In this document: piece after piece, positions 456 to 17,206 of the stretch
Numbering within the stretch: the first letter of the stretch is position 1
How the letters are laid out: every line of letters begins with the position of its first letter
Assembly (NCBI GenBank): GCA_964631565.1
Contig: CAZVYJ010000001.1
Coordinates: forward strand, 12,705-76,704
Direction: 5' to 3'
Length of the DNA stretch: 64,000 nt
Source of the DNA: an uncultured Planctomycetaceae bacterium
GTDB lineage: Bacteria > Planctomycetota > Phycisphaerae > SM23-33
Notes under the pieces: generated by a model
What the model saw: only the letters and a program-made list of their open reading frames with translations
The model's database searches: none
Told to the model about the DNA's origin: nothing
Made by a program: the position numbers and the translations under genes

Positions 456-2756
456 ATGTTGAGTCAAAAACGCGGAAAAAACGTCGCCCTGGCGGGCGGG
501 TTGTTCCAGATGATCTTCACTGCGGTGATGATAGCGGTCTGGCGGTACACCGGGTCGATATCGGCAATGTGCACGGCCTGGCTGCTCGCGGGCGGCGTTC
601 TGCTTTGGCTGATTGTTGCGGTGCTGTTCTACTTCAATGAACTTGCCCGCCGCGAAGAGCTGGAGCTTGAGGAAATCCAGTCCGGGCGGGGCGGGCACGG
701 CCCGACGATTTTCGAGGGCGAAGAAGGCGCCGAGATGCGGCACGCCATCCGCCGGGCCGACTGGATGAACAAGTGGGCCGTCCCGTTCGCCACGCTGCTT
801 CTGGCGTTCTGCCAGGCCGCCATAGCCGTAATCTCCATGCGGTTCCTGTTCACGCAGAGCGCTCCGGTCATTACGGAAATCGGACCGGCATCGCTTTTCC
901 TCGGTCTGACGGCGTTCCTGGCGTTTCTGTTCAGCCGCTACGCCACGGGCATGGGCGGTTCGAGCCAGTGGCGGTTTCTGCGGGCGACCGGCGGATACCT
1001 GCTGGTCTGCGTGATTTTCATCGCCGCCGTCGTGCTGTCGCTGCTGATGGCGGGGCAGGGATACGGCAACGTGGACCTCATCGTCGCATACGCCGTATGC
1101 ATCGTTCAGCTTGTGCTCGCCGTCGAGCTTACGCTTAATTTCGTACTCGACCTCTACCGCCCGCGGATTCCGGGCAAGGAATATCATCCGAGTTTCGAGA
1201 GCCGCGTGTTCAGCATTCTCGCCGAGCCGGACCGCGTCGGGCATTCAATCGCCGACACGCTGAATTACCAGTTCGGCTTCGAGGTTTCGCGAACGTGGTT
1301 TTACAGGCTGGTTTCCAAGGCGTTCGTGCCGCTGCTGATACTGGCCGTCCTGATAATGTTCGCCATGAGCAGCGTTGTGCTGGTCCAGCAGGGCCAGCAA
1401 TGCGTCGTCACCAGCCTGGGCCGTCTCCAGGAGCCGGCGCTGGGGCCCGGCCTGCACTTCAAGCTGCCCTGGCCTTTCGCCACGGAGAAACGATTCAACA
1501 CCGATGAGATTCACGAAATCATACTCGGCGTCGGCGAGGCCCGCGAGCCGACGATAATCAAGGGCCGCGAGCTTTACCTCTGGACCGAGGAGCACGGCAG
1601 CAGGCAGGAGCGTGATTTCCTTGTCGCCATCCAGCCGCCAAAGGACTGGAGCGAGCCTGGCGAAAACGCCAATGCCGACAAGGTGAAAACCCCGCCGGTG
1701 GCCATGATCAAGCTGGTTGTGGTCGTGTATTACAAAATCGCTGATGTGCGGGATTACGGCTACAACTACAAGGATTCACATTCGGTTCTCGAGTCCCTGG
1801 CGTATCGCGAAATGACGCGCTACTACGCCAGCGCCACGCTGATGGACCCTATTCGCGACAAGACGTCCGGCGGCAAGGACAGGCCTGAGGCGATAATGAC
1901 GTTCGGCCGCCAGAAAGCCGCGGACAATCTCCGCAGGCTTATTCAGGCCAGGGCCGATGACATGAAGCTTGGCGTAACCATAACGCACGTCGGGATAATT
2001 TCGTCGCATCCGCCCGCCAAGGCTGCGCCGGCCTTCGAAAATGTCGCCAAGGCCGAGCGCGCCCGCGATTCAAAACGTTACGAAGCCGAGGCCGAGGCGA
2101 GCTACATGCTCGCCGGCGTCGCCGGCGACGTGGGCGAGGCGCTGCGGCTGGCCCAGGAGATAACAAAGCTCGAACAGCTTACCGACCTCTCGCGTGCCGA
2201 CGCAGCCGATGTGGGTGCGCTGGTCGATAAATACATCGCGCAGACGCAGGAGGATATAGGCCTGCTCGACAAGGAAATCGAGCGCGAGCGTATTTTGGGG
2301 CGGACCGCATCAAGCAAGATATGGCAGGACAACCAGGCCCTGCGCAAAAAGTCGGTCGCGTACCTGGATGTCCTGAAGCAGATAAAGGCGAACCCAGCCG
2401 GCTTCAACTTCACAGCCGCCGTCGAGGAGTCACAAAAGCACGCCGAGGACATGCTTGACCGCGCACGCGGTGAGCCGGCGAAACTCATCGCTGAGGCCGA
2501 GGCGGAACGCTGGCAGAAAGAACTCGGCGAGCGGGCACGGGCAGAAACGTTCTCCAGGCACCTGCTGGCGTACCGGGCCAGCCCGGACATGTACATTCTC
2601 GACCGCTGGCTCGATACATGGGACGAAGTGCTCAAAAGAGCCGCCAGCAAGCAGGTCATCGCAGTCGATCCCAACAAGGTCGAGCTCTGGCTGGACTGGA
2701 AATGGAAATCCGACCTGATGCAGGGCGTCACTTTCGAGAAAGAAAAGAAGGAATAA
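456..2756 (+). CDS. SPFH/band-7 (HflK/HflC-like) domain protein fused to an N-terminal ~8-TM domain and a long C-terminal coiled-coil region
   Basis: ATG at 456 after gaggtcc. Residues 1-290 are multi-TM. Central VVTSLGRLQEPALGPGLHFKLPWPFATEK...IHEI is the HflK/HflC SPFH signature. The C-terminus is charged and helix-rich. Confidence 0.7.
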   Translation: MLSQKRGKNVALAGGLFQMIFTAVMIAVWRYTGSISAMCTAWLLAGGVLLWLIVAVLFYFNELARREELELEEIQSGRGGHGPTIFEGEEGAEMRHAIRRADWMNKWAVPFATLLLAFCQAAIAVISMRFLFTQSAPVITEIGPASLFLGLTAFLAFLFSRYATGMGGSSQWRFLRATGGYLLVCVIFIAAVVLSLLMAGQGYGNVDLIVAYAVCIVQLVLAVELTLNFVLDLYRPRIPGKEYHPSFESRVFSILAEPDRVGHSIADTLNYQFGFEVSRTWFYRLVSKAFVPLLILAVLIMFAMSSVVLVQQGQQCVVTSLGRLQEPALGPGLHFKLPWPFATEKRFNTDEIHEIILGVGEAREPTIIKGRELYLWTEEHGSRQERDFLVAIQPPKDWSEPGENANADKVKTPPVAMIKLVVVVYYKIADVRDYGYNYKDSHSVLESLAYREMTRYYASATLMDPIRDKTSGGKDRPEAIMTFGRQKAADNLRRLIQARADDMKLGVTITHVGIISSHPPAKAAPAFENVAKAERARDSKRYEAEAEASYMLAGVAGDVGEALRLAQEITKLEQLTDLSRADAADVGALVDKYIAQTQEDIGLLDKEIERERILGRTASSKIWQDNQALRKKSVAYLDVLKQIKANPAGFNFTAAVEESQKHAEDMLDRARGEPAKLIAEAEAERWQKELGERARAETFSRHLLAYRASPDMYILDRWLDTWDEVLKRAASKQVIAVDPNKVELWLDWKWKSDLMQGVTFEKEKKE

Positions 2757-2814
2757 CTGGTAGAAATTCTCAGACATTGGAATCAACAAGGTCTGAATAC
2801 CGAGGAATACGGAC

Positions 2815-3777
2815 ATGAACAAACATATAGGATTGGTGATACTGGCTTCTCTGGTCATGTTGCTGCTGCTGGCTTATACGGTCACGTTCGTGGTCGATCA
2901 GCCCAGCGACATAATAGTGCTGACTACATTCGGGCAGGCCAGCGCAAGCGATGTATACGAGGGTGCGGAGGGGGCCGGCTGGCACTTGAAGTGGCCGTAC
3001 CCGATACAGCGTGCAGTGCGCCTGGAGAAACGCCGCATTCGCGTTTACGACCCCAACGACGCGGTCTACACGTCGGACGGGCAGGAGCTTGTCGTCAGCG
3101 CGTTCTGCATATGGGAAATAGACAAGCCGGTCGACTTCCTCTCCAACATCAAATCGGAAGCCGCCGCGTCTGAGCGCATCAGCAACCTGCTCCGCAGCAG
3201 CAAGAAGGAAATCTTCTCCAGCCGCAGCATGTCGCAGATCGTCAATACCGATCCGGACATGATGAAGCTTGGCGACATTGAGAACGAGATAGCGACCCGG
3301 CTGAAATCCTTCGTTGATGATGAAAAGTACGGCGTCAGGATCGTGCAGGTCGGAATCGAGAGAATGACGCTCACCACGGCGATAACCGAACAGGTTATCG
3401 AAACCATGAAGAAGGAACGCGAGCAGTTCGCCAAGACCTACGAGACCGAAGGCGATGCTGAGGCGACAGCGATAAAATCCCGCGCCGAGAGCGCCCGCAA
3501 GCGGATAATCGCGTTTGCCGAGCGCCACGCCAGGGACATCCGGGCCGAAGGCGAGCGGGCCGCCGCACGCGAATACAGCAAGTTCGAGGAATTCCCGCAG
3601 TTGAGCATGTTCCTGCGATACATAGACACGCTTAAGGCCGGGCTGAAAGACAACACGACGATTTTCCTGGACGGCTCGAAGATAGAGGCGATCGGCTGGT
3701 TCCGGGAAGGGGCGTCGCTGCCAAAAGGCCCGCCGATAAAGCTCGATGAAAAGGCCGGCGCCGGCGACAAGAAGTAG
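2815..3777 (+). CDS. HflC-like SPFH/band-7 membrane protein
   Basis: N-terminal TM anchor. VVDQPSDIIVLTTFGQ... and FLRYIDTLKAGLKDNTTIFL resemble the HflC C-terminal motif. 58-nt gap to the upstream gene, same strand. Confidence 0.7.
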   Translation: MNKHIGLVILASLVMLLLLAYTVTFVVDQPSDIIVLTTFGQASASDVYEGAEGAGWHLKWPYPIQRAVRLEKRRIRVYDPNDAVYTSDGQELVVSAFCIWEIDKPVDFLSNIKSEAAASERISNLLRSSKKEIFSSRSMSQIVNTDPDMMKLGDIENEIATRLKSFVDDEKYGVRIVQVGIERMTLTTAITEQVIETMKKEREQFAKTYETEGDAEATAIKSRAESARKRIIAFAERHARDIRAEGERAAAREYSKFEEFPQLSMFLRYIDTLKAGLKDNTTIFLDGSKIEAIGWFREGASLPKGPPIKLDEKAGAGDKK

Positions 3778-3804
3778 GACCTGGAATATCCGGAGACAGC
3801 TGAC

Positions 3805-5121
3805 ATGGCTGAAAAAATACATAATCATGACAACTGCCCGCACGGCCGCCATCATCGCGACGATGGGTACGAGCCTGTGATTCAGGACGCCGCCTCGCAA
3901 AGCCTCGCCAAGGCGCTGAAAGCGAGCTTCAGGCTGCTTTCGCTGATAATGATTCTCATTATGGCGGCGTTCCTCGCGACCGGCCTGAAGACCATAAAGC
4001 AGAATCAGCGGGGCATAATCAAGATGTTCGGCCGGGTCGTTGGGGAGGTAGGCCCGGGCCTGGCGCACGCCTGGCCGTTCCCGATAGGCGAGATAGACGT
4101 CGTCGATGTAAGCGTGCAGAAGTTTGAGATGGACGATTTCTGGATTAACGAGACGGCCAAGGATCTCGCCACGCCGTGGGAGCAGAGAACGGCCTACAGG
4201 GGCGGGCTTAAGCCCGGCCTGGACGGCATGCTCATTACCGGCGACAGGGCGATACTGCACATGAAACTGGCATGTTCGTACCAGGTGAGTGAGCCGATAA
4301 AGTTCCGCGAAAGCATGGTCGACCCAGAGGCGACCGTCCGGTCGGTGATATGCTCCGCCGCGATCAAGGCCGTCGCGCATCGAACCGCCAGCGCCATAAT
4401 GACCGGCGAGTCGACCGCGCTTGTGAACGAAATCAAGAAAAACGCGAACGACGCCCTCGGCGAAGGCGGCCTGGACTGCGGAATAGTCCTGACGACGCTC
4501 AGTCTGCCGCAGCACAGCCCGACCTGGCCTCTGGGCGCCAAAGCCGCCTTCGACAAGGCGCAGAACGCGACCAACGTTCGTGAAGGCAAAATCAAGGACG
4601 CCTACGGCGAGGCGAAAACCATACTGCAACAGGCTGCCGGCAATGCGTATAAAGAGCTTGTCGGTTCGTTCGAACCTACGGAGGAGAAACCCACGGGGGT
4701 TCCGCTTATAGTGGCCTACGAGAAGGCCCGCGAAAATGGTAACGACGAGGAAGCCGCCATATACCTTGAGAAAATCAACAATATTCTCCTCAGTGGAGAA
4801 ACTGGCGGTGAGGCCAAGAGCATCATCGAGGACGCGAAGGCGTACAGGACGGGCATCGTCCAGGCCGTCCAGGGCCGCGCCGAAAAATTCGAAAAGCTCC
4901 TACCCGAATTCCGCAAATATCCCGACCTGATGGTGCAGAGGCTCTGGGCCGAGACCGTTGAGGAGATACTCAGCTCGCCCACGGTCGAAAAAATCATCAT
5001 CCGCGTCGGCGACCAGGTGATAAATATCCAGGCGAACCAGCCTCCGGCCGTCGCACGAAAAATGCTGGAAGAGGCGATTAAAAAGAGCAAAGAGCAGAAT
5101 AAAAAGGAAGGCGAGAAATAA
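3805..5121 (+). CDS. HflK-like SPFH/band-7 membrane protein
   Basis: RBS ggagacagctgac before ATG. TM anchor followed by IIKMFGRVVGEVGPGLAHAWPFPIGEIDVVDVSVQ (HflK-type SPFH), then a long charged tail. Confidence 0.7.
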   Translation: MAEKIHNHDNCPHGRHHRDDGYEPVIQDAASQSLAKALKASFRLLSLIMILIMAAFLATGLKTIKQNQRGIIKMFGRVVGEVGPGLAHAWPFPIGEIDVVDVSVQKFEMDDFWINETAKDLATPWEQRTAYRGGLKPGLDGMLITGDRAILHMKLACSYQVSEPIKFRESMVDPEATVRSVICSAAIKAVAHRTASAIMTGESTALVNEIKKNANDALGEGGLDCGIVLTTLSLPQHSPTWPLGAKAAFDKAQNATNVREGKIKDAYGEAKTILQQAAGNAYKELVGSFEPTEEKPTGVPLIVAYEKARENGNDEEAAIYLEKINNILLSGETGGEAKSIIEDAKAYRTGIVQAVQGRAEKFEKLLPEFRKYPDLMVQRLWAETVEEILSSPTVEKIIIRVGDQVINIQANQPPAVARKMLEEAIKKSKEQNKKEGEK

Positions 5122-5158
5122 TTCGAAATAACCGTTCGACTCGCCGGAATTCAACGAT

Positions 5159-6364
5159 ATGGCCGAAAGCTATGACAACGTGGTTGTCGTCAAAAGACTG
5201 ACGAAGGTTTTTCGCGACTTCTGGCTGCGCGAGAAGGTGACTGCCGTCGCCGACCTCGACCTGGAAATCCGCTCGAAGGAAGTGTTCGGCCTGCTGGGGC
5301 CTAACGGCTCCGGCAAGAGCACCACGCTGAAGATGGTCCTCGGCCTGCTGTTTCCGACTCGCGGCGTGATATCGGTGTTCGGCAAGCGCCCGACCGACGT
5401 CGGCACGAAGGCCCGCATCGGCTATCTGCCGGAGGAATCGTATCTTTATCCGTTCCTCAACGCCGTCGAGACGCTGGACTTTTACGGGCGCCTGTTTCAC
5501 CAGTCGCGGCACATCCGCAAGGGCAGAATCGAGATGCTCCTGGACATGGTCGGCCTTGCCGCCGTGGCGTACCGCCGCGTAGGCGAGTATTCCAAGGGCA
5601 TGCAGCGGCGCATCGGTCTGGCACAGGCGCTGATAAACGACCCGGACCTGCTCATACTCGACGAGCCGACTGCCGGAATGGACCCCATCGGCACGCGGCA
5701 GATAAAAGACCTCATCGGCGAGCTGGCGAAGCGCGGCAAGACTGTCATTTTGTCCAGCCACCTGCTCGCCGACGTGGAAGACGTGTGCGACCGCGTGTGC
5801 ATTCTTTACGGCGGCCGGCAGCGGCGGCTTGGAAGCATCGACGAACTGCTCGCCCGCCGCACACAGACGCAGATAACCATCGACGACCTTGACCCAGCGA
5901 CGCTCGCCGAAGTTCGGCAGCTGCTTGAAAAGGCCGGCAAGGAAGCCGAAATCACCACGCCTCGCGACAGGCTCGAGTCGCTCTTCCTGCGGATTGTCCG
6001 CGAGGCGAAAGAGAAAAAACTCGCCACCGGCGGTGCTGTGTCCGGCGGGCAGGTCGCGGAATTTCTCCGGGCCGAACCGGCCGAGGGCAGCCGCGTCATT
6101 ACCGAGCTTATCACCCGCGCCGAGCCGGTCCCGGCCAACCAGCCTGCCGAGGAGCCTCAGCTCCCGCCGGCGGAAGAGCAGCCCGCACGTGACGTGCTCG
6201 ACGAACTTACCGCCGGCAAGGAGCCGCCGGCCCCGGCCGCCGAGCCGCAGCCCGAAACTCCGCCTGCTGCCGCGAAAAACGCGACACGGCAGGACGATGC
6301 CGACAGAGGCTTTATCGACGGGCTTATCGGCGGTGCCGACAAATCCAACTCGGAGGATTCATAA
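5159..6364 (+). CDS. ABC transporter ATP-binding protein with Pro/Ala/Glu-rich C-terminal extension
   Basis: Walker A GPNGSGKST, signature YSKGMQRR, Walker B LLILDEPTAGMD, H-loop SSHLL. The ~130-aa low-complexity tail (PAEEPQLPPAEEQPA...) is unusual. Confidence 0.9.
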   Translation: MAESYDNVVVVKRLTKVFRDFWLREKVTAVADLDLEIRSKEVFGLLGPNGSGKSTTLKMVLGLLFPTRGVISVFGKRPTDVGTKARIGYLPEESYLYPFLNAVETLDFYGRLFHQSRHIRKGRIEMLLDMVGLAAVAYRRVGEYSKGMQRRIGLAQALINDPDLLILDEPTAGMDPIGTRQIKDLIGELAKRGKTVILSSHLLADVEDVCDRVCILYGGRQRRLGSIDELLARRTQTQITIDDLDPATLAEVRQLLEKAGKEAEITTPRDRLESLFLRIVREAKEKKLATGGAVSGGQVAEFLRAEPAEGSRVITELITRAEPVPANQPAEEPQLPPAEEQPARDVLDELTAGKEPPAPAAEPQPETPPAAAKNATRQDDADRGFIDGLIGGADKSNSEDS

Positions 6365-6366
6365 CG

Positions 6367-8049
6367 ATGCGCAGTATATGGGCCGTCGCGAGACAGACGC
6401 TCGCTCAGTGCCTGCGCATGAAGGTGGCCGGCGTGTTCATCGTGCTGCTGGCCGTCGTGGTTACGGCGCTGCCTTTCACCCTAAAGGGCGACGGCACGCT
6501 GGCAGGGCAGATCAGGACATTCCTTTCATACAGCGTTTCAATGACGACTGTGTTGCTCACTATCGTCACCATTTTTCTGTCGGTCGGCGTGGTTTCGTCC
6601 GACGTGCAGGACAAGCAGGTGTTCCTGCTGGCCGTCAAGCCGCTGGGGAGAGGCGAATACGTGCTCGGCCGATGGCTGGGCGTGGTGGTGTTCGACGCGA
6701 TACTGATACTGGCTTCCGGCGCGATAATTTACGGACTGGCGCAGCATCTTCGCGGCGGCAAGGTCATGAACGATAACGACCGCCGCGCCGTCGAAATGGA
6801 AATATTCTCATCGCGGGCCAAAGTCAGGCCGGACTCCATCGAGGGAGATATAGAAAAAAACATCCTCGATCGAATCGGCAGGCTGAAGCAGGAAGGCAGA
6901 TACGATGCTTCGCTTGATGCGTATAAGGAGCGAACCGGCGGCGACCGTCAGGCCGCCGAGGTGATGCTGCTGGATGAAATCCGCCAGCAGGTCACTGAGG
7001 ATCTCCAGTCGGTCAAACCGGGCGAAAGCATGACGCTTGTTTTCAGCGGCATCCGGCCGCAGGGCGGCGAGGTGCACGGCAAGGGAACTGTAGGCCAGGT
7101 CGTCGAAGACAATGCGAACAAGCTCGTCTATTTCGAAATGTCGACGTCGCGGCGATTCCTTGGACAGCTCATCGCCGGCTATCCTCTGCGGATCGCGGAC
7201 CGCGACGCATGGGTCAGCGAGCTTCGCAGGGAAACCTTCGTGGGCGTCATGCATGCCGACGACGCCGAACGCATAACTTTGAAAACCGGCGAGGAAATGC
7301 AGCTCACCGCCGAGCCGGTCATACAGATAAGCTACCAGCTGAAGCCTTCACAGACCCCGCCGAACGAGCGCCAGCTTTACGGCGAATGGGAAGTCGCCGG
7401 CGGCGACATAACCAAAAAAAATGAGAATACCGAAAGCAGCGAAAGGTATCTTCCGCTGCCTCGCCGCGACCCCATCCGCGTCCAGACGACGCTCATAGCG
7501 TCGGCCAGGGTGGTCGGCAAGGACGGCAAAATATCGGTCACGTACACCAACAGGCCCGATCCCCAGACCGGCTTCGTAACCGCCGTTACGCTGGACCGCA
7601 ATGACGCCGCGGTTCTCTACCGCATCGGCTCGTTCGAGATGAACTTTGTTCACGGGCTTATGCTGATTCTGTTCCAGATGATGTTCATGGCGGCCGTCGG
7701 CGTGATGGCCGGCACGTTTCTGTCGTTCGCCGTGGGCTGCATACTTTCGTTCGCCGTTCTGCCGTTCAGCCTCGCCCGGGCGTTTCTTTCCGATGCCGTC
7801 AGGCTGAGCGAGAGCAGGGAAAACGACGTGTGGACCGTCGGCGGGCACTACATATATAAAGTGATGGCCGCCGTTCTGCCCGACCTCGGCAGCATATCGG
7901 TGTCGGACTTCCTTGTGGACGGCGTCGCGATATCATGGTCTCTGGTCGGAACCTCGGCCCTGTGGACAATCGGCGTGCGCACGGCGCTGGTGCTCGTTGT
8001 CGCATGCCTGATATTCTACAGGCGCGAGCTTGCGAGAGTTCAGGTGTAG
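6367..8049 (+). CDS. ABC-2 family permease with large (~270 aa) extracytoplasmic loop
   Basis: ATG 2 nt after the upstream stop. Hydrophobic N-terminal helices, a long soluble insert (res ~130-400), then 4-5 C-terminal TM helices. Confidence 0.65.
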   Translation: MRSIWAVARQTLAQCLRMKVAGVFIVLLAVVVTALPFTLKGDGTLAGQIRTFLSYSVSMTTVLLTIVTIFLSVGVVSSDVQDKQVFLLAVKPLGRGEYVLGRWLGVVVFDAILILASGAIIYGLAQHLRGGKVMNDNDRRAVEMEIFSSRAKVRPDSIEGDIEKNILDRIGRLKQEGRYDASLDAYKERTGGDRQAAEVMLLDEIRQQVTEDLQSVKPGESMTLVFSGIRPQGGEVHGKGTVGQVVEDNANKLVYFEMSTSRRFLGQLIAGYPLRIADRDAWVSELRRETFVGVMHADDAERITLKTGEEMQLTAEPVIQISYQLKPSQTPPNERQLYGEWEVAGGDITKKNENTESSERYLPLPRRDPIRVQTTLIASARVVGKDGKISVTYTNRPDPQTGFVTAVTLDRNDAAVLYRIGSFEMNFVHGLMLILFQMMFMAAVGVMAGTFLSFAVGCILSFAVLPFSLARAFLSDAVRLSESRENDVWTVGGHYIYKVMAAVLPDLGSISVSDFLVDGVAISWSLVGTSALWTIGVRTALVLVVACLIFYRRELARVQV

Positions 8050-8055
8050 GAAAGT

Positions 8056-9963
8056 ATGAGTTTGCAGTCGCAGAAAATACGGTGGGTCTGGCTGGCGATT
8101 GCCGCCGCGGGCATCGCCTCGGCCGGCCTCCTGCACGCGCCGCTCGACGAGCTGAGCGAGAAATACGAACTCGAGCCAATCGACAAGGGAACCATCGAGC
8201 GATACCCGCAGCTGGCGCTTCTCCAGACTGCGCCGGGCGGCCTGCGGGCGATTGCCGTCAACTATCTCTGGATACGCTCGCAGGATTTCAAGGAGCAGGG
8301 GCGTTTCTACGATGCCATGCAGCTGGCCACCACGATATGCTACCTCCAGCCGCGATTTGAAGGCGTATGGGCGTTCAACTCGTGGAATATGGCGTGGAAT
8401 ATTTCCGTAGCCACTCACACGCCCGAGGAGCGATGGCAGTGGGTGTACAACGGCGTGAAGCTTCTGCGCGACGACGGAATACCGATGAACCGCCGCTCGC
8501 TGCTGCTGTACAAGGAGCTGGCGTGGATATTCTTCTTCAAGATGGGCCAGTATACCGACGACATGCACATGGTCTACAAGCAGCGGTGGGGCGGCGAAAT
8601 GCAGGATTTGCTGTCTTCACCGCCGTACGGCGGCACGAAGGATGTAATCGACGCCTTCCGCCCGATAGCTGCCGCCCCGCTGGACAAGGACATCAGAAGG
8701 CAGGGTCTCGAAGAGATTCAGCCGGACATGCGCGACCAACTGCTTTCCGATGCGGAACTGGCCGATTACGCCGGTAAGCTGCAGGCCGTCGGCGTCGGCG
8801 TGGACCGCTCGCTGCTCGACGCCTACAACCGCGTCAGCATGGCTCCCGATGCGTATCTGTATCGCCTGGATGTCCCTAAGCAGGAGACCGATGAGGAAAA
8901 AACGCTGTTTGAACTCATAAACGGCAGCGCCTACGCCGCACAGAGAACGAAGCTGCTTGCCTTCGTCAGGGCGCAGATTCTCTGGAACAAATACAAAATG
9001 GACCCGGCCTGGATGCTGGACCTGATGGTCCGACTGGACGCGCCGCTGGACTGGCGTCATGTCTATTCGCATTCGCTGTACTGGGTCACATACGGCATAC
9101 ACGTGTGCGACAGCCTGGGAATGTCGGACATCATCGCGCTGAATACCGACCGCATCGTTCTGAACTCGCTCAAGGAAATGACCTGGACGGGCAGGCTCAT
9201 ACTTACGCGAAATCCGCGCAACCCCGACATGCCGGACCTGCGCTGGCTGGCCGACTTCAGATTTGTCGAGCCGACACAGACGGAATATATGCGAATCATA
9301 AACGCCATAGCGTCAAGCAAGGCTGCCGACGACGAGAAAAACGATTTCGAAAGCGGGCATATAAACTATCTCGCGACCGCCATCGCGGGACTGTACGCCG
9401 ATTACCAGCGGGACGAGGCGCAGAAGTACTTCGACTGGATAAAGAGCTATTACAGGAAAACCGGCGAAGAGTGGGACATGCCGCTGGGCGATTTTGTTGC
9501 TTACCGCCTGAACAAGGAAGGCAGCCCGATTCGCGACATCGCCGACAGCCAGATAACCGCCGCCCTGAGAACGTGGCTGAGGCTCACCGCGGCCAACCAG
9601 CCGGACGAGGCCCGGCAGAGCCTGCAGTATGCCATGATGGTTTACGACATATACGCCAAAAATGTGACCGCCGACCGCATGAAGCAAGCTGAGTTTCTTT
9701 CCATATTAAGCTCCGTGGCGGCCGAGGTGCTCATCAGGCCGGAAACCCTGGGCTTCCATATACCGCTTGCTGACCGATCCAGGGTGTACAGAATGCTCAA
9801 CGAAAACGTCCAGACGCTGATTTACGACAGCATAGACATTTATCTCCGTCCGCTGTGCGATGAGCAGAATTACGATTTCGACAAGGCGTTCCCGATGCCC
9901 GAAAGTCTGAAAAAGTACCGCGAAAAACTCCATGAGAGGATAAAAGTGGAGAAGAATAAGTAA
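8056..9963 (+). CDS. hypothetical membrane-anchored protein (635 aa), operon partner of the ABC/SPFH genes
   Basis: 6-nt gap after the permease. N-terminal signal/anchor WVWLAIAAAGIASAGLL. No recognisable catalytic motif. Trp/Tyr-rich. Confidence 0.55.
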   Translation: MSLQSQKIRWVWLAIAAAGIASAGLLHAPLDELSEKYELEPIDKGTIERYPQLALLQTAPGGLRAIAVNYLWIRSQDFKEQGRFYDAMQLATTICYLQPRFEGVWAFNSWNMAWNISVATHTPEERWQWVYNGVKLLRDDGIPMNRRSLLLYKELAWIFFFKMGQYTDDMHMVYKQRWGGEMQDLLSSPPYGGTKDVIDAFRPIAAAPLDKDIRRQGLEEIQPDMRDQLLSDAELADYAGKLQAVGVGVDRSLLDAYNRVSMAPDAYLYRLDVPKQETDEEKTLFELINGSAYAAQRTKLLAFVRAQILWNKYKMDPAWMLDLMVRLDAPLDWRHVYSHSLYWVTYGIHVCDSLGMSDIIALNTDRIVLNSLKEMTWTGRLILTRNPRNPDMPDLRWLADFRFVEPTQTEYMRIINAIASSKAADDEKNDFESGHINYLATAIAGLYADYQRDEAQKYFDWIKSYYRKTGEEWDMPLGDFVAYRLNKEGSPIRDIADSQITAALRTWLRLTAANQPDEARQSLQYAMMVYDIYAKNVTADRMKQAEFLSILSSVAAEVLIRPETLGFHIPLADRSRVYRMLNENVQTLIYDSIDIYLRPLCDEQNYDFDKAFPMPESLKKYREKLHERIKVEKNK

Positions 9964-10015
9964 CTCAAATCGATCGCCCCCGAAAGGCCGGTCAGGGAAA
10001 AGATTGATTGGTTGG

Positions 10016-10055
10016 CTGGTTGATTTGTTAACCGTTTAACCGGACAATCAACCAG
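10016..10055. repeat. perfect 10-bp inverted repeat (CTGGTTGATT / AATCAACCAG) flanking a 20-nt spacer containing direct repeat TTAACCG-TTTAACCG
   Basis: Read directly: ctggttgatt tgttaaccgtttaaccggac aatcaaccag. Lies 53 nt after the stop of the 8056 gene, in a 358-nt intergenic region. Confidence 0.6.
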
Positions 10056-10321
10056 TCAGCAAATCAGTCAGTTTGGGTAGGTTGATCATCAAATCCGTCT
10101 GGTTCTTTAGATAATTATTACAGGGTTCCGGAACTTCTTCGGCAGTTGTGCGTCTTATATTCGGCTGAGCCTGATACAGGTTACTTACCGACTATAGTAA
10201 GCGTCAAAAGTCTTTTCGCGTTACCGGCAACGCCCGTCCCTGAGGGGCTGGCAAAAAACCTCACCCGGCGGAAAAAACTATTGGCAGGCATTCTAAAACT
10301 CTTGCGAAAGGAGATAATGCA

Positions 10322-11567
10322 CATGAAACTCCGAAACACCATACTGCTTCTTTTGGCCGCTTCCATTCTGGTTTTGCCGGCGGCTGCGACGGCGCGCGTG
10401 AAACTGGCGGCCCTTCCGCAGCGCGAGCGCGTCGAAATCCAGCTCGATAACGGCATGTATACGCTGGTCGAGGAAGAGCGCATCGTTCCGCTGCTCAAGT
10501 CGACGGCCGAGGCCGGAAACAACAAAATCGATTTCAGCTGGTCGAACACCCAGATCGACAAGGATTCGATCCTGTTCCGCCCGATAGCCGTCAGCGAAGA
10601 CGGCAAGTTCCGCCCGGTGAAGACCGACGGCGACAAGCCGGAGGTGAGCGTGATAAACGTCGCCTACCCGCCGGGCGAGAACGCCCTTGTGTGGGAAGTC
10701 TACGCAGCCGAAGCCTGCGCCGTTAAAGTGCGGGTCAGCTACCTCATCAACAACCTGAGCCGCTCGTTCTCGTACCGCGTGCTGGCAAACAAGGACGAGA
10801 CCGTCCTGACCCTGAAAAACTACATCCAGCTCAGCAACTACTCCGGAGAGGAGTTCGGCACATCCGGCGTATGGGCTGGGTTCGGACCGTCGTTCATGAA
10901 GGAAATCGGCTACCAGGAAGACGTCAAGATGCTCATCAGGAGCTTCAAGGACGTGCCCATCGAGAAGACCTACACCTACGACTGGTACGTCAACGGGCCG
11001 CTCAACCCGGACAAGCCGTTCGCTTCCAAGGTGGTCATGCACTACAAGCTCATCAACGATGAGAAGCACAATCTGGGCGAATTCCCGCTGCAGCCCGGCA
11101 AGGCCAGGATATTCATTCAGGACGGCCGCGGCGGAGAGGCGTTCCTCGGAGAGGACTGGGCTTCGCTTACCCCGCTGGACGGCAAGATGAAGCTTTATCT
11201 CGGCGAGGCCCGCGACGTGGTCTGCACGCGGACGATCCAGGATAACAAGCGACACGAAGTCCGCGGCAACCTGTTCAACCAGGAAATCACCATCAAGTAC
11301 GAAATCGAGAACTTCAAGGACAAGCCGGTCACTCTCGACATCATCGAGCGGATGAACAACATCGCCCAGCAGTACGGCAGCGACCCGCACGGCGACGCGG
11401 AGTGGACGGTCGGCGACAACACCTCCAAGAACATCAAGTTCGACTATGAATACGGCGGCGCGACGCCTACGCTGAAGGTCGAGCTGCCGGCCCGGCCGAA
11501 AAACCCGGATGAAAAAGTCCAGAAACTCACGTTCACGTTCCACTTCACCATAAAGAACCTCTGGTAA
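10322..11567 (+). CDS. secreted hypothetical protein, paralog 1 of tandem triplet
   Basis: aaggag RBS 10 nt before ATG at 10322 (ORF-track start 10146 rejected). Signal peptide MKLRNTILLLLAASILVLPAAATA. Shares architecture and motifs (IDFSWSNTQIDKDSILFRP...) with the next two genes at ~35% identity. Confidence 0.65.
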
Positions 11568-11593: not shown

Positions 11594-12946
11594 ATGAAAC
11601 GCAATGCGATTATGATGACGCTGCTTCTGGCCGCCCTTGCCGCCACGGCGCCGGCCGAGAACGTGGACCTGGTCACGCTGCCCAGCCGCGACACGGTGCA
11701 GCTGACCATCTACAACTCCGAGGACATCACGCTGGTCAAGGAGACACGCAACGTCACGCTGAAAAAAGGCTCCAACAAGATTCAATTTTCGTGGGCAGGC
11801 ACGCTTATCGATCCCACGAGCGTGGAATTCCGCCCGCTGACGCATGTTGATGAAATTGAATTGTCCGACACCGTATTCCCCGGCCAGAAGCCCCAGCACT
11901 TAATCTGGAATATCGACTCCAAGTTTGAGGGCGAAGTGAAGGTCGAGGTCAGCTACTTCACCAGCGGCCTGACATGGACGATGGACTACGTCGCCACCTG
12001 CGACCCGGCCGAGGAGAAGATGCAGCTTCGCGGCTATGTTCGCGTATTCAATAATTCCGGCGAGGAATACGAGAACGCCGAGGTGCATCTGATTGTCGGC
12101 ACGATAAACCTCGTCGAGAAGATAGCCGACCTCGCCCGCCGCCAGGGCATACAAGTACCACAGCGGGGCACGGCAGAGCATGAAAGGTTGAGAAAACAGG
12201 TCACATTGGAGGCTGCGGACAAGGCTGAAGAGGTTGCATTTGCGGCGCCTGCTGCCTCAATGCCGCCGAAGATAGTCAAGGAAGGCCTGAGCGAGTACTT
12301 CATGTTCTCCATAGAAGGCACGGAGACTATTCCCGACGGCTGGTCGAAACGCATGGAAGCCGTAAAGGCCGACGACGCCAAGTTCGAAATACTTTACCGC
12401 ATGCGGGACTTCCAGTACGGTCCGCGGCCGGTGCGATTCTTCATCTGGCGGAACGACGATGAGCACAAGCTCGGCGAGTCGCCGCTGCCTGACGGCCGCG
12501 TGCGCATCTTCCGCGAAAACGGCAAGGACGGCCTGAGTTTCCTCGGTGAGCAGCAGATCCGCTACGTGCCGATAAAGGCTGAGATTGAAGTCAACCTCGG
12601 CGCTGACGACCTTGTCGTCTACGAGACTCGCAAGATGTCCTCAGAGCGGCTGAACTTCCACTTCCACTGGGTTGATAATCACGAGTACGTGGACGGCTGG
12701 GACGAGAAATGCCAGTGGCTGGACACCGTCCGCAACTACCGCACCAAGCCGATAAAGTTCGAGCTTCGCCGCCGCTGGCTTGGCGATGTCGATTACACGT
12801 CTGAAGTCGCGACGACGCTGTTCGACTTCAACACGATAGAGACGACCATCGACATCGGCGCCCGCGACAAGAAAGACTATCCCTGCACGGTAATCACACA
12901 CTACGGCACCAACAAGAAGCAGGAACAGATAAGGATAGGCAAATGA
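11594..12946 (+). CDS. secreted hypothetical protein, paralog 2
   Basis: aaggagaaatgtc ATG. Signal peptide MKRNAIMMTLLLAALAATAPA. ~93% nt identity to paralog 3 apart from a replaced central cassette. Confidence 0.75.
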   Translation: MKRNAIMMTLLLAALAATAPAENVDLVTLPSRDTVQLTIYNSEDITLVKETRNVTLKKGSNKIQFSWAGTLIDPTSVEFRPLTHVDEIELSDTVFPGQKPQHLIWNIDSKFEGEVKVEVSYFTSGLTWTMDYVATCDPAEEKMQLRGYVRVFNNSGEEYENAEVHLIVGTINLVEKIADLARRQGIQVPQRGTAEHERLRKQVTLEAADKAEEVAFAAPAASMPPKIVKEGLSEYFMFSIEGTETIPDGWSKRMEAVKADDAKFEILYRMRDFQYGPRPVRFFIWRNDDEHKLGESPLPDGRVRIFRENGKDGLSFLGEQQIRYVPIKAEIEVNLGADDLVVYETRKMSSERLNFHFHWVDNHEYVDGWDEKCQWLDTVRNYRTKPIKFELRRRWLGDVDYTSEVATTLFDFNTIETTIDIGARDKKDYPCTVITHYGTNKKQEQIRIGK

Positions 12947-14304
12947 AAACGCAGATATGGATTACATCCGTGCTGCTCCTGACCGCCCTCGCCGCAGCGA
13001 CGCATGCCGCGAACGTGGACCTGGTCACGCTGCCCAGCCGCGACACGGTGCAACTGACCATCTACAACTCCGAGGATATTACGCTGGTCAAGGAGACACG
13101 CAATATCACGCTGAAGAAGGGCATGAATAAAATTCAGTTTTCATGGGCAGGCACGCTTATTGACCCGACGAGTGTGGAGTTCCGCCCGCTGACGCATGTT
13201 GATGAAATTGAATTGGCGGATACCGTATTTCCCGGCCAGAAGCCCCAGCACCTGATATGGAACATCGACTCGAAGTTTGAGGGTGAGGTGAAGGTTGAAG
13301 TGAGCTACTTCACCAGCGGCCTGACATGGACGATGGACTACGTCGCCACCTGCGACCCGGCCGAGGAGAAGATGCAGCTTCGCGGCTATGTTCGCGTGTT
13401 CAACAATTCCGGCGAGGAATACGAGAACGCCGAAGTCCGTCTTATTGTCGGCACGATAAATCTCGTCGAGAAGATAGCCGACCTCGCTCGCCGCAAGGGA
13501 ATACCCGTACCTCTTGAAGACAGTAAAGATTATAACGAAATGAAGAGAGGCGCCATAACAAAGAGCATCACCAGGTCAGAACGGGAATTCGATGGCGACA
13601 TGATTGAGGGAAAAAAGCCGCATGGGATAGTCAAGGAAGGCCTGAGCGAGTACTTCATGTTCTCGATAGAGGGCACGGAGACCATCCCCAACGGCTGGTC
13701 GAAACGCATGCAGGCGGTGAAGGCCGACGACGCGAAGTTCGACATACTTTACCGCATGCGTGACTTCCAGTACGGCCCGCGGCCGGTACGTTTCTTCATC
13801 TGGCGCAACGATGAGGAGCACAAGCTCGGCGAGTCGCCTCTGCCTGACGGCCGCGTACGCATCTTCCGCGAAAACGGCAAGGACGGCCTGAGCTTCCTCG
13901 GCGAGCAGCAGATACGCTACGTGCCGATAAAGGCTGAGATTGAAGTCAACCTCGGCGCTGACGACCTTGTCGTCTACGAGACCCGCAAGATGTCCTCTGA
14001 GCGGCTGAACTTCCACTTCCGATGGTCGGGCAGCAGGGAATGCGTGGACGGCTGGGACGAGAAATGCGCCTGGCTGGACACGGTCCGCAACTACCGCACC
14101 AAGCCGATAAGATTCGAGCTTCGCCGCCGCTGGCTTGGCGATGTCGATTACACGTCCGAAGTGACGACGACGCTGTTCGACTTCAACACGATTCAGACGA
14201 CCATCGACATCGGCGCCCGCGACAAGAAGGATTACCCCTGCACGGTGGTCACTCATTATGGAGTCAACAGCAAGCAGAACAGGATAAATCTCAGGAAAGA
14301 TTGA
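12943..14304 (+). CDS. secreted hypothetical protein, paralog 3
   Basis: ATGA overlap with the stop of paralog 2. Signal peptide [22 protein letters not shown]. Near-identical to paralog 2 outside 13494-13628. Confidence 0.75.
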
Positions 14305-14737
14305 TGGCGTCAGGCAGTGTTTCGACGAATGCGCGTATTTCGTCCCTGACGCGGCGGTAACAATTGAGAATCTCTTCTTCACTGTCGGCGGACTCAGCCA
14401 GCTTTGGGGGGTCGTCGAAGCCGACGTGAATCACGCGAACGCTGCCCGGGAAAACCGGGCAGTGCTCGTTTGCATGTCCGCACAATGTCACCACGCAGTC
14501 GAATTTCACGCCGGCCAGCTCGTCGACGTGCTTGGACCGCTGGGCCGATATGTCCACGCCCGCCTCGGCCATCACCTTCACCGCCCGCCCGTTCATGCCG
14601 TGCGTCTCGATGCCGGCCGAGTACGCCTCCAGGCAGTCGCCCTTGAGCTTCCTCGCCCAGCCCTCGGCCATCTGGCTGCGGCAGGAGTTGCCTGTGCAGA
14701 GAAACAGGATTTTCGTTTTTTTCTTACGTTCATTCAT
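14291..14737 (-). CDS. arsC: arsenate reductase, thioredoxin-coupled LMW-PTP family
   Basis: [27 protein letters not shown] (CX5R P-loop) and [15 protein letters not shown] (second/third Cys). ORF-track start at 14800 overlaps arsM, so the internal ATG is used; ATG at 14755 is an alternative. Confidence 0.85.
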
Positions 14738-14756
14738 CAGTTCACCACGAGTCATG

Positions 14757-15518
14757 CTATCGCAATGCCAGCACGGTAATGGAGGCGGCTGCGCCGGCAT
14801 TCGGGGCGGTTATCGGATCATCACAGGAATTGGACGCCTTGTAGGTATGGTCGCTGAGTATTTCCATTTTATCGAAGCCGGCGTCGCGGATAGCCTGCAG
14901 ATACTCATCCCGCAGCATCGCGCCGGCGATGCAGGCGGCGTAGAGGTCGGCGTCATTGTGGGCCGACTCCGGCAGCGGCCGGTTCAGCACGATGTCGCTG
15001 ACGATCATCCGCCCGCCGGGCTTCAGCACGCGGTAGACCTCACGGAATACCTGCGGTTTGTCCGGCGAGAGGTTGATGACGCAGTTGGAGATCACCACGT
15101 CCACGGAGGCGTCATCCACAGGCAGGTGCTCGATATGTCCTTCCCGGAACTCGACGTTGGCCAGACCAGTTGTCGTGAAGAACCTGACGGCATTTTTGCG
15201 GGCCAGTTCAAGCATCTCCGGTGTCATGTCCACGCCAATCGCCCGGCCTTCGTCGCCGACCTTATGGGCGGCCAGGAATACGTCCTTGCCTGCTCCGCTG
15301 CCGAGGTCCAGCACCACGTCGCCCTTGTTGATGTACCCGAACGCCAGCGGATTGCCGCACGACAGGCCCAGCTCCGACTCGGGCACGGGATGGTCGCTCA
15401 CGGTGTAGGCCTTGTCGTCGCAGCAGCAGGAGCTTTTCGAATCGCAGCATGAGGATTGCTTGCGGGCGACTTCGCCGTAAGCCTTCCGGACCAGTTCATG
15501 CGTTTTGTTTTTGGACAT
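14757..15518 (-). CDS. arsM: arsenite S-adenosylmethionine methyltransferase
   Basis: SAM motif [13 protein letters not shown]. Cys-rich N-terminus [23 protein letters not shown]. Typical ArsM length. Confidence 0.85.
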
Positions 15519-15541
15519 ATACGCTTACCTTCACTTTCGGA

Positions 15542-16750
<1,209 letters not shown>

Positions 16751-16834
16751 ATCGCCAACCTTTCCTCTTCAGTGCGTCGGGAGTCGCCGGTGCGGAGAAA
16801 TCGGGATTTTAAACTTATCGCTCATGGTTTTTCC

Positions 16835-17206
16835 TCAGCAGGTTTTGTAATGCCTGCACAGTTCTTTGCGTGTCATCTTCCGGACGCATTTGAGTTTTTT
16901 GGCGTCTTCGCGAACGCGGCTGTCCTTGGCCAAGCATTCAATCGCCGCCGCCAAGATGGCGCGTACGCAAGGCGGGTCCGGTTTCTCGGTCAGGCTATAG
17001 TAAATCCACCGGCCGTCCTTGCGTGTTTCGACCAGGCCCGCCTGGTGCAGAATGGCCATATGCTTCGAGACAGTCGAGGGGGCCAGCTCCAGCAGCTCGA
17101 TGATCTGGCAGACGCACAGCTCACCGCCCGTAAGGGCCATCAAAGCCCGCACGCGGCCTTCGTCCGACAATGCTTTGGTGACAGTCAGAAACTCTCGCAC
17201 TTTCAT
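16835..17206 (-). CDS. arsR: ArsR/SmtB family metalloregulatory repressor
   Basis: wHTH domain with ELCVCQI metal(loid)-binding motif. RBS cggaga. First gene of arsR-acr3-arsM-arsC. Confidence 0.85.
   Translation of the reverse strand: MKVREFLTVTKALSDEGRVRALMALTGGELCVCQIIELLELAPSTVSKHMAILHQAGLVETRKDGRWIYYSLTEKPDPPCVRAILAAAIECLAKDSRVREDAKKLKCVRKMTRKELCRHYKTC

Follow-up and report, generated by a model that had tools for sequence, protein, structure and literature searches.

Two adjacent genes for secreted proteins of one family, located in the 64,000-nt stretch of DNA analyzed here (the window), encode protein cores that are 96.7% identical (92% for the DNA overall) and enclose a short internal block in which the two proteins have 2 of 37 residues in common. 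We found that the variability of this block extends throughout the family, that in many genomes the block has become uncoupled from the flanking sequence, and that in related genomes it yields trees incongruent with those of the core. The combination of a homogenized core and an escaped block is probably best explained by segmental concerted evolution of the tandem copies.

The two genes belong to a series of three paralogs arranged in tandem on the (+) strand. Copy 1 (10317–11567) was classified as an A-type paralog on the basis of the list of open reading frames, a three-way alignment, and a weak match to PF13598; it is a DUF4139-like, secreted protein ~32% identical to copies 2 and 3. Copy 2 (11594–12946; 450 aa, comprising a signal peptide and an all-beta body) and copy 3 (12943–14304; 453 aa) are both B-type paralogs, and the two genes overlap in the sequence ATGA, in which the start codon of copy 3 shares bases with the stop codon of copy 2. 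Signal peptides are present in all three proteins, and the database protein P0001 is identical to copy 3.

All three copies match DUF4139/MuiA weakly at the sequence level. Specifically, the whole-protein scores against PF13598 (DUF4139) were 32.8, 29.5, and 17.2 bits for copies 2, 3, and 1, respectively (gathering cutoff, 31.8 bits), with the match covering only profile positions 1 to 117 of 205, and the scores of the three copies against TIGR02231 (MuiA) were 31.8, 26.5, and 11.5 bits, none of which reaches the cutoff of 112.6 bits. Since only copy 2 attains the Pfam cutoff and the TIGR02231 scores lie far below theirs, the planctomycete A+B module looks, by these profile comparisons, like a subfamily distinct from DUF4139/MuiA. 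MuiA of Pseudomonas aeruginosa is known only as an envelope-stress-induced protein (PMC10418997), and our search of the literature on DUF4139 returned no paper on function.

Approximately 8,000 homologues of copy 2 were recovered at E ≤ 0.001, and those carrying a name belong to Planctomycetota. In related Planctomycetota loci, the module is laid out as one divergent A gene followed by one to four tandem B genes; of 80 related genome loci, 76 have an A-type gene in front of their B genes, and the neighborhood of the module varies between genomes. The genes lying upstream of the three paralogs (three SPFH genes, an ABC ATPase gene, an ABC-2 permease gene, and a gene for a 635-aa protein) were considered as parts of the module and rejected, as they are unlinked to A and B in other loci. 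A defense-system or phage origin of A and B was likewise discarded, since neither matched a defense family in PADLOC or a phage family in PHROGs. A search of Rfam gave no credible match in the region.

When copies 2 and 3 were compared in sliding 30-nt segments, identity was 87 to 100% in the flanks and 33 to 53% across a stretch of ~120 nt, a contrast well outside what chance would give. Delimited to exact codons, the variable block occupies positions 12161–12271 (+) of copy 2 (12152–12271 if the residues QVP are included), and its counterpart in copy 3 occupies 13513–13626 (+). The first-pass annotation had placed a hypervariable cassette at 12144–12270, which is the right region, but the interval is one base off the reading frame at each end and takes in the conserved QGIQVP. 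The peptide it reported and both conserved flanks are present in copies 2 and 3, and its assignment of the two segments to the same length class with preserved frame agrees with our measurements: the blocks span 40 codons in copy 2 and 41 codons in copy 3, so the reading frame is kept.

The base composition of the two blocks was described as GC-rich in copy 2 and AT-rich in copy 3, a contrast that holds on the copy 3 side only. The copy 2 block is indeed Ala-rich (9 of 40 residues), but its GC content of 58.3% is close to that of the rest of the gene (57.0%) and of the window (58.4%). In comparison, the copy 3 block is Lys/Glu/Asp-rich, in line with the Lys/Glu-rich, AT-rich segment originally described, and has a GC content of 47.2% (versus 56.8%) and a GC3 of 0.51 (versus 0.78 for the gene). 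The two segments, whose alignability the annotation had put forward as the decisive point, align significantly neither as DNA nor as protein. In DNA, the best local score on either strand was 8, compared with a shuffle mean of 8.4 (p = 0.74), while alignment of the strictly variable parts of the two proteins gave a local p of 0.93 and a global z of 1.6 (p = 0.07). An origin of one block from the other through a frameshift or an inversion was rejected, given this lack of DNA similarity in either orientation.

Substitution rates, estimated by the method of Nei and Gojobori, differ between the two parts of the gene. The core of copies 2 and 3 (362 codons) has a dS of 0.345 and a dN of 0.019, and the block has a dS of ~1.2 and a dN of ~1.06 (threefold the core dS), both block values being saturated and derived from short, noisy alignments. 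Identity between the two copies also falls in three segments beyond the block, all of them absent from the first-pass annotation: the signal peptide (11594–11656 in copy 2 versus 12943–13008 in copy 3; dN of 0.52 and dS of 0.45), a 27-nt patch encoding HWVDNHEYV in copy 2 and RWSGSRECV in copy 3 (12665–12691 versus 14020–14046; dN of 0.61), and the C-terminal tail within the last ~40 nt (12908–12943 versus 14263–14301; dN of 0.41 and dS of 1.26), all on the (+) strand. Together with the block, these make four divergent segments, and it is the same four that vary within the family at large.

The block lies between two anchors on the (+) strand. The left anchor (12104–12160) comprises a strongly conserved first helix and a GIxVP turn, as judged from the invariant columns I171–G185 in an alignment of 40 sequences and from helix 173–183 in a structural model; the right anchor (12272–12319) consists of 16 residues, identical in both copies, in which the beta strands resume according to the alignments and the model. 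An AlphaFold2 prediction for copy 2 based on 40 close homologues reached a pLDDT of 54 and was set aside in favor of one based on 109 sequences, including a Pirellulales clade, which reached a pLDDT of 86 and a pTM of 0.74 and is almost wholly beta. In this model, a helical insertion is located between strands 159–170 and 228–230 and consists of helix 173–183, the GIxVP turn, helix 194–216, and a low-confidence segment at 217–227. The variable block is predicted to correspond to the second half of this insertion, namely, the amphipathic helix (residues 194–216 of copy 2; 12173–12241, +) and an Ala/Pro-rich disordered tail (residues 217–226; 12242–12271, +). The insertion is specific to the B paralogs; the three-way alignment revealed that the whole helix insertion bearing the block is absent from copy 1.

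In the model, strands 341–360 and 363–381 form an extended beta hairpin, with the nine-residue variable patch (residues 358–366) at its tip. Fold searches returned generic beta-sandwich domain matches only, and a profile search of PDB sequences returned no match. The predicted secondary structure, the pLDDT, and the pattern of conservation together suggest that the second helix is exposed; our guess is that it packs via one hydrophobic stripe and exposes a copy-specific face and the tail.

Across the family, the alignment of 40 sequences contained no invariant column between G185 and I227, with invariant anchors on either side, and the length of the block ranged from ~34 to 55 residues. A profile of the block built from 164 B genes of other genomes (consensus ...EEYRELRREAAKEAFDRAEAAAEGAAAAAAPK...) matched copies 2 and 3 with scores of 25.4 and 16.5 bits, respectively, the maxima among 500 shuffles being 11 and 5 bits. 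Both versions also keep a hydrophobic stripe (H/Y, L/M, V/A, L/I, A/I, and F). The profile matches and the kept stripe identify them as two very diverged versions of one helix-linker rather than a foreign insert, and the blocks of copies 2 and 3 are thus homologous instances of a single element found throughout the family. Low GC3 in the block is likewise common to the family (92% of 166 B genes; Wilcoxon p = 4.5e-25) and is therefore no mark of foreign origin. The word cassette, in the sense of an exchangeable, foreign, mobile, or actively diversified module, does not suit such an element, since both versions match the family profile and the window contains neither extra copies of the block nor inverted repeats flanking it. 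Nor does the word hypervariable: orthologues keep their block type, with a pooled dN/dS of 0.33 (range, 0.02 to 1.0; ~0.05 for the core), so that the block is better described as fast-evolving than as hypervariable on short time scales.

These observations bear on whether the block could be the product of programmed diversification, i.e., of a DGR, of gene conversion from silent cassettes, or of an invertible or shufflon element. A short variable stretch within a conserved secreted protein is indeed common to the B genes, to DGRs, and to pilE/pilS, vlsE, and msp2, but the picture of a discrete block between conserved flanks is only superficially alike, and we consider programmed diversification extremely improbable. 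In contrast to those systems, the B blocks have no template or donor copy in the 64-kb window, and their types are stable between related genomes. Specifically, blastn-short and tblastn searches of the window found no second copy of either block beyond the blocks themselves, no DGR template repeat (~80 to 95% identical, with differences at adenines), and no silent, promoterless partial copies with alternative blocks, and no inverted repeats bracket positions 12143–12271 or 13495–13626. Because the two blocks are unrelated in DNA, neither can be the template repeat of the other, and the adenine-specific pattern of a DGR is impossible between blocks that do not align. The absence of defense and phage family matches for A and B also argues against such a system.

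The tandem pair could, in principle, be an artifact in which two strain alleles of one gene were stitched together during assembly, given that the source looks like a metagenome-assembled genome and that near-identical repeats are hard to assemble. This explanation is scarcely credible, however, in view of the 83 scattered positions at which the cores of copies 2 and 3 differ (~67 synonymous and 16 non-synonymous), the distinct signal peptides and tails of the two copies, and the unique ATGA junction between them. Moreover, the A-B-B layout is found again and again in independent NCBI, JGI, and ENA assemblies, dozens in all.

The first-pass annotation had described a discrete segment with sharp boundaries and a history decoupled from that of the rest of the gene, and the comparison with other genomes bears this out. 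At least two B copies are carried by 35 of 116 loci, and among the within-genome pairs whose cores are >93% identical, block identity falls below 50% in 24 of 29. Ten additional pairs, assigned to a common contig from the equal lengths of their longest contigs and in one case (L131) confirmed as adjacent genes, display core identities of 86 to 98% and block identities of 13 to 29%; L131, located on an independent contig from ENA, repeats this anatomy. In L079, the flanks of the two copies are nucleotide-identical over 465 nt before the block and ~727 nt after it (one difference), while the two copies bear no relation to each other in the signal peptide, the ~150-nt block, or the final codons, with the caveat that the comparison loci are nearly all metagenome assemblies and that, where flanks are identical as they are here, mis-assembly could have joined a block to the wrong copy. 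Identical flanks around an unalignable block constitute a pattern that point mutation cannot produce.

Incongruence between core and block was evident in genomes related closely enough for their B copies to be matched. By their blocks, L020#1 groups with L018#4 (71 to 74% block identity) and L020#2 groups with L018#3 (61 to 67%), while the cores are more alike within a genome, with a core dS of 0.24 within L020 and of 0.31 to 0.42 between L020 and L018. For the triplet L020#2, L020#1, and L018#3, bootstrapping supported the same-genome pair in the core (P = 0.999) and the cross-genome pair in the block (P = 0.96); for the triplet L018#3, L018#2, and L020#2, the core and block supports were both 1.0. 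The block types of L018 and L020 are thus older than the cores that carry them. In total, 20 of 45 triplets, from 8 genomes, were incongruent. A similar comparison of L031, L064, and L046 gave pairwise-aligned blocks that are 50 to 53% identical across genomes (50% for L031#2/L064#1), a grouping that bootstrapping of alignment columns backs in one triplet and one direction only; the core dS of L031 and L064 is 0.5 to 0.7 within genomes and ~1.0 between them.

Two further regularities emerged from the comparison of loci. Within-genome core dS clusters at 0.2 to 0.4 in six to nine unrelated genomes, which looks more like an equilibrium between mutation and conversion than like duplications that happen to be of one age. 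At matched core identity, blocks are less similar in within-genome pairs than in between-genome pairs. Homogenization of the core is not universal, as L038, L054, and L057 contain four old orthologous B types whose cores lack it; conversion would therefore depend on the lineage. In a few cases (L100 and #2/#3 of L045), the copies have identical blocks, as expected from a recent duplication or from a conversion tract that spans the block.

For the pair in the window, scans of the genome_contigs and metagenome_contigs collections found no genome closer than ~73 to 75% protein identity, so the orthology test used for L018 and L020 is not applicable, and the argument for this pair draws on rates and on weak block similarity across genomes, which is weakest for copy 3. 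The core dS is 0.35 within the genome and 1.1 to 1.3 to the nearest relatives, a between-genome comparison made irrespective of orthology. The helix of copy 2 matches that of P0046 at 48% identity and that of P0044 at 43%, proteins whose cores are 77 to 79% identical to copy 2, and the helix of copy 3 matches that of P0041 at 36%; the helices of copies 2 and 3 have 1 of 23 residues in common (4%). Each block therefore resembles blocks from distant genomes more than it does the one next door. A perfectly identical tract of 95 nt (11951–12045, corresponding to 13303–13397; +) is a candidate for a recent conversion tract, as it contains 31 identical codons compared with a permutation mean of 15.4 (p = 0.003). 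This identical-run test, which compares two sequences, was significant in the N-terminal core only and not in the other core segments.

Could the same data reflect ordinary divergence after a recent tandem duplication, with an unconstrained or positively selected surface element in a core under purifying selection? Block dN/dS values of up to ~1.0 between orthologues (L020#1/L018#4 and L084#1/L082#1) are compatible with it, as is the poorer fit of copy 3 to the block profile (16.5 versus 25.4 bits), as if it were the derived version, and aligning the two blocks globally in register gives a weak positive score (z = 1.6). A core dS of 0.35 is not small and hence leaves room for a duplication of some age in which the block evolved fast. 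Nevertheless, purifying selection cannot explain a core dS that is low relative to other genomes (0.35 versus >1.1), and a block dN of ~1.06 would demand a dN/dS of ~3 over 40 codons. Ordinary divergence is also at odds with the essentially zero synonymous differences in the L079 flanks around an unalignable block and with the presence of both block types in L018 as well as L020. Taken together, we regard it as quite unlikely.

Block replacement is also unlikely; in this scenario, a single homologous recombination event, with the conserved flanks as its arms, would have exchanged the block of one copy for that of a diverged allele from a different strain or lineage, either following a duplication or within a pair that already existed. 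The scenario would account for sharp boundaries on both sides that coincide with conserved anchors and for a copy 3 block whose composition is unusual for the genome (47% GC; GC3 of 0.51 versus 0.78), and identical flanks such as those of L079 are also expected after a very recent swap. Yet the low GC3 of the block extends to 92% of the 166 B genes, our searches turned up no block resembling a near-identical donor (the best helix matches being 36 to 48% identical), and the three or four separate segments that differ would each need a replacement of their own. We therefore infer that conversion, rather than block replacement, lies behind the pattern of the window pair.

According to the model of segmental concerted evolution that we favor, gene conversion and/or unequal crossing-over between the tandem copies would repeatedly homogenize the constrained core, synonymous sites included, while the helix-linker block evolves ~6 to 10 times faster at the protein level and also accumulates insertions and deletions. 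With substitutions at every codon position and indels besides, the block would be the first part of the gene to lose the identity that conversion requires, and, once too diverged for conversion tracts to run through, it would persist in each copy as an old, copy-specific version. Tracts would then end at the heterology, the two blocks in the window would be old, and the signal peptide, the hairpin tip, and the C-terminal tail would behave like the block. Escape from conversion by local divergence is reportedly treated in the theory of Walsh from 1987 and of Teshima and Innan from 2004. The blocks may be held apart by heterology, by selection for distinct variants, or by both.

The mechanism is not new, as segmental concerted evolution is already known; the B genes place it in a new family. 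Among known cases, the closest analogue is provided by the Helicobacter pylori paralogs babA/babB, homA/homB, and sabA/sabB, in which RecA-dependent intragenomic gene conversion keeps one segment more similar within a strain than between strains while another stays gene- or allele-specific (PMC3960876, citing Pride & Blaser 2002). The planctomycete B copies appear to follow the same mosaic logic as babA/babB and homA/homB, with several differences. The H. pylori bab and hom genes are dispersed loci, whereas the B copies are directly in tandem and probably co-transcribed, and in the B genes the homogenized sequence lies on both sides of a short (~40 aa) internal block. In addition, the Planctomycetota concerned are free-living and lack host immune pressure, and no chimeras or switching were observed.

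Flagellin- and pilin-type duplicates, such as flaA/flaB of Campylobacter, are also arranged in tandem and combine conserved, homogenized ends with an exposed variable center. The likeness of the B genes to flaA/flaB concerns conserved ends and a variable middle alone and implies neither a filament nor surface exposure for the B proteins; the predicted all-beta, multi-sandwich fold of the latter is unrelated, and their variable part is a helix plus linker rather than a domain.

Several implications follow for the family. The mosaic pattern is a textbook one that has been documented mostly in host-associated pathogens, and here it extends across dozens of free-living Planctomycetota. Phylogenies and orthology assignments of B genes will be misleading if core and block are not analyzed separately, and loci of the L079 type offer a natural gauge of the limits of conversion tracts in Planctomycetota. 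The block and the hairpin tip mark the part of the protein surface in which copies are able, or are driven, to diverge, which makes them an obvious place to look for partner specificity.

The content of charged residues differs more between the blocks of same-genome paralogs than in reshuffled sets (0.124 versus 0.106; p = 0.005, ignoring relatedness). It is conceivable, if doubtful, that selection as well as heterology keeps the blocks different and that the block acts as a specificity determinant, governing the choice of partner or ligand or the chemistry of a tether. If so, each planctomycete would possess a genetically fixed set of one to four B variants built on a shared scaffold that is homogenized continually, and genomes would tend to carry a charged block, rich in Lys and Glu, alongside one rich in Ala, Pro, and Gly. 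The B genes would then represent a bacterial counterpart of gene clusters that set a variable module on a constant body, residing in a near-universal envelope module of the Planctomycetota.

The cleanest example of decoupling between the variable block (the helix-linker segment of B-type genes) and its flanks is locus L079, as assembled, in which two putative tandem B genes (5494-6867 and 7001-8359) have nucleotide-identical flanks of 465 nt and about 727 nt, with one difference, surrounding blocks of ~150 nt that are unalignable. We also found tandem B copies that share their blocks. Specifically, the copies at 4986-7719 in L100 were fully identical, block included, while in the tandem array at 6926-9874 in L045 the second and third copies had identical blocks and a core dS of 0.08. 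This block identity between copies indicates that blocks, too, can be duplicated or converted.

Analysis of 166 B genes from related loci (L001-L128) revealed that third-position GC content (GC3) in the variable block was below that of the core in 92% of genes, with means of 0.73 and 0.83, respectively (Wilcoxon p = 4.5e-25). In the window, GC3 was 0.55 in the copy 2 block (12161-12271) and 0.51 in the copy 3 block (13513-13626), compared with 0.78 in the core. Weaker codon selection in the block is a possible cause of its lowered GC3, as is a lack of GC-biased conversion.

The stop codon (TGA) of copy 2 is overlapped by the start codon (ATG) of copy 3 in an ATGA at 12943-12946, and copy 2 is separated by just 26 nt from copy 1, the A-type gene; this arrangement suggests a single transcript with translational coupling. 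The 350-nt gap 5′ of copy 1 contains an imperfect hairpin (10002-10069; 24-nt arms, 83% complementary, 20-nt loop), for which an Rfam search returned chance-level miRNA models and no other match. Further upstream, a cluster of genes on the same strand as the module (456-9963) codes for three SPFH/Band 7 proteins, an ABC ATPase, an ABC-2-like membrane protein and a 635-aa protein without a family match; in other genomes, this cluster shows no linkage to the A/B module. Directly 3′ of the module, on the (−) strand, lies an arsenic-resistance-like operon (14291-17206) encoding an ArsR-type regulator (HTH_5), an SBF/ACR3-type transporter, a SAM methyltransferase and a low-molecular-weight phosphatase (ArsC-like).

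Across loci L001-L131, modules carry 1 to 4 B copies but a single A gene, and paralogs of one genome tend to combine a charged block, rich in Lys/Glu, with one rich in Ala/Pro/Gly (permutation p = 0.005, uncorrected for relatedness). A second short variable patch on the (+) strand, HWVDNHEYV in copy 2 (12665-12691) versus RWSGSRECV in copy 3 (14020-14046), is predicted from modeling to form the tip of a long beta hairpin. Family-wide, this patch occurs in two forms, "long" (RRxxxREYVDGW) and "short" (xRxNxVxGW), and paralogs within one genome differ in which form they carry.
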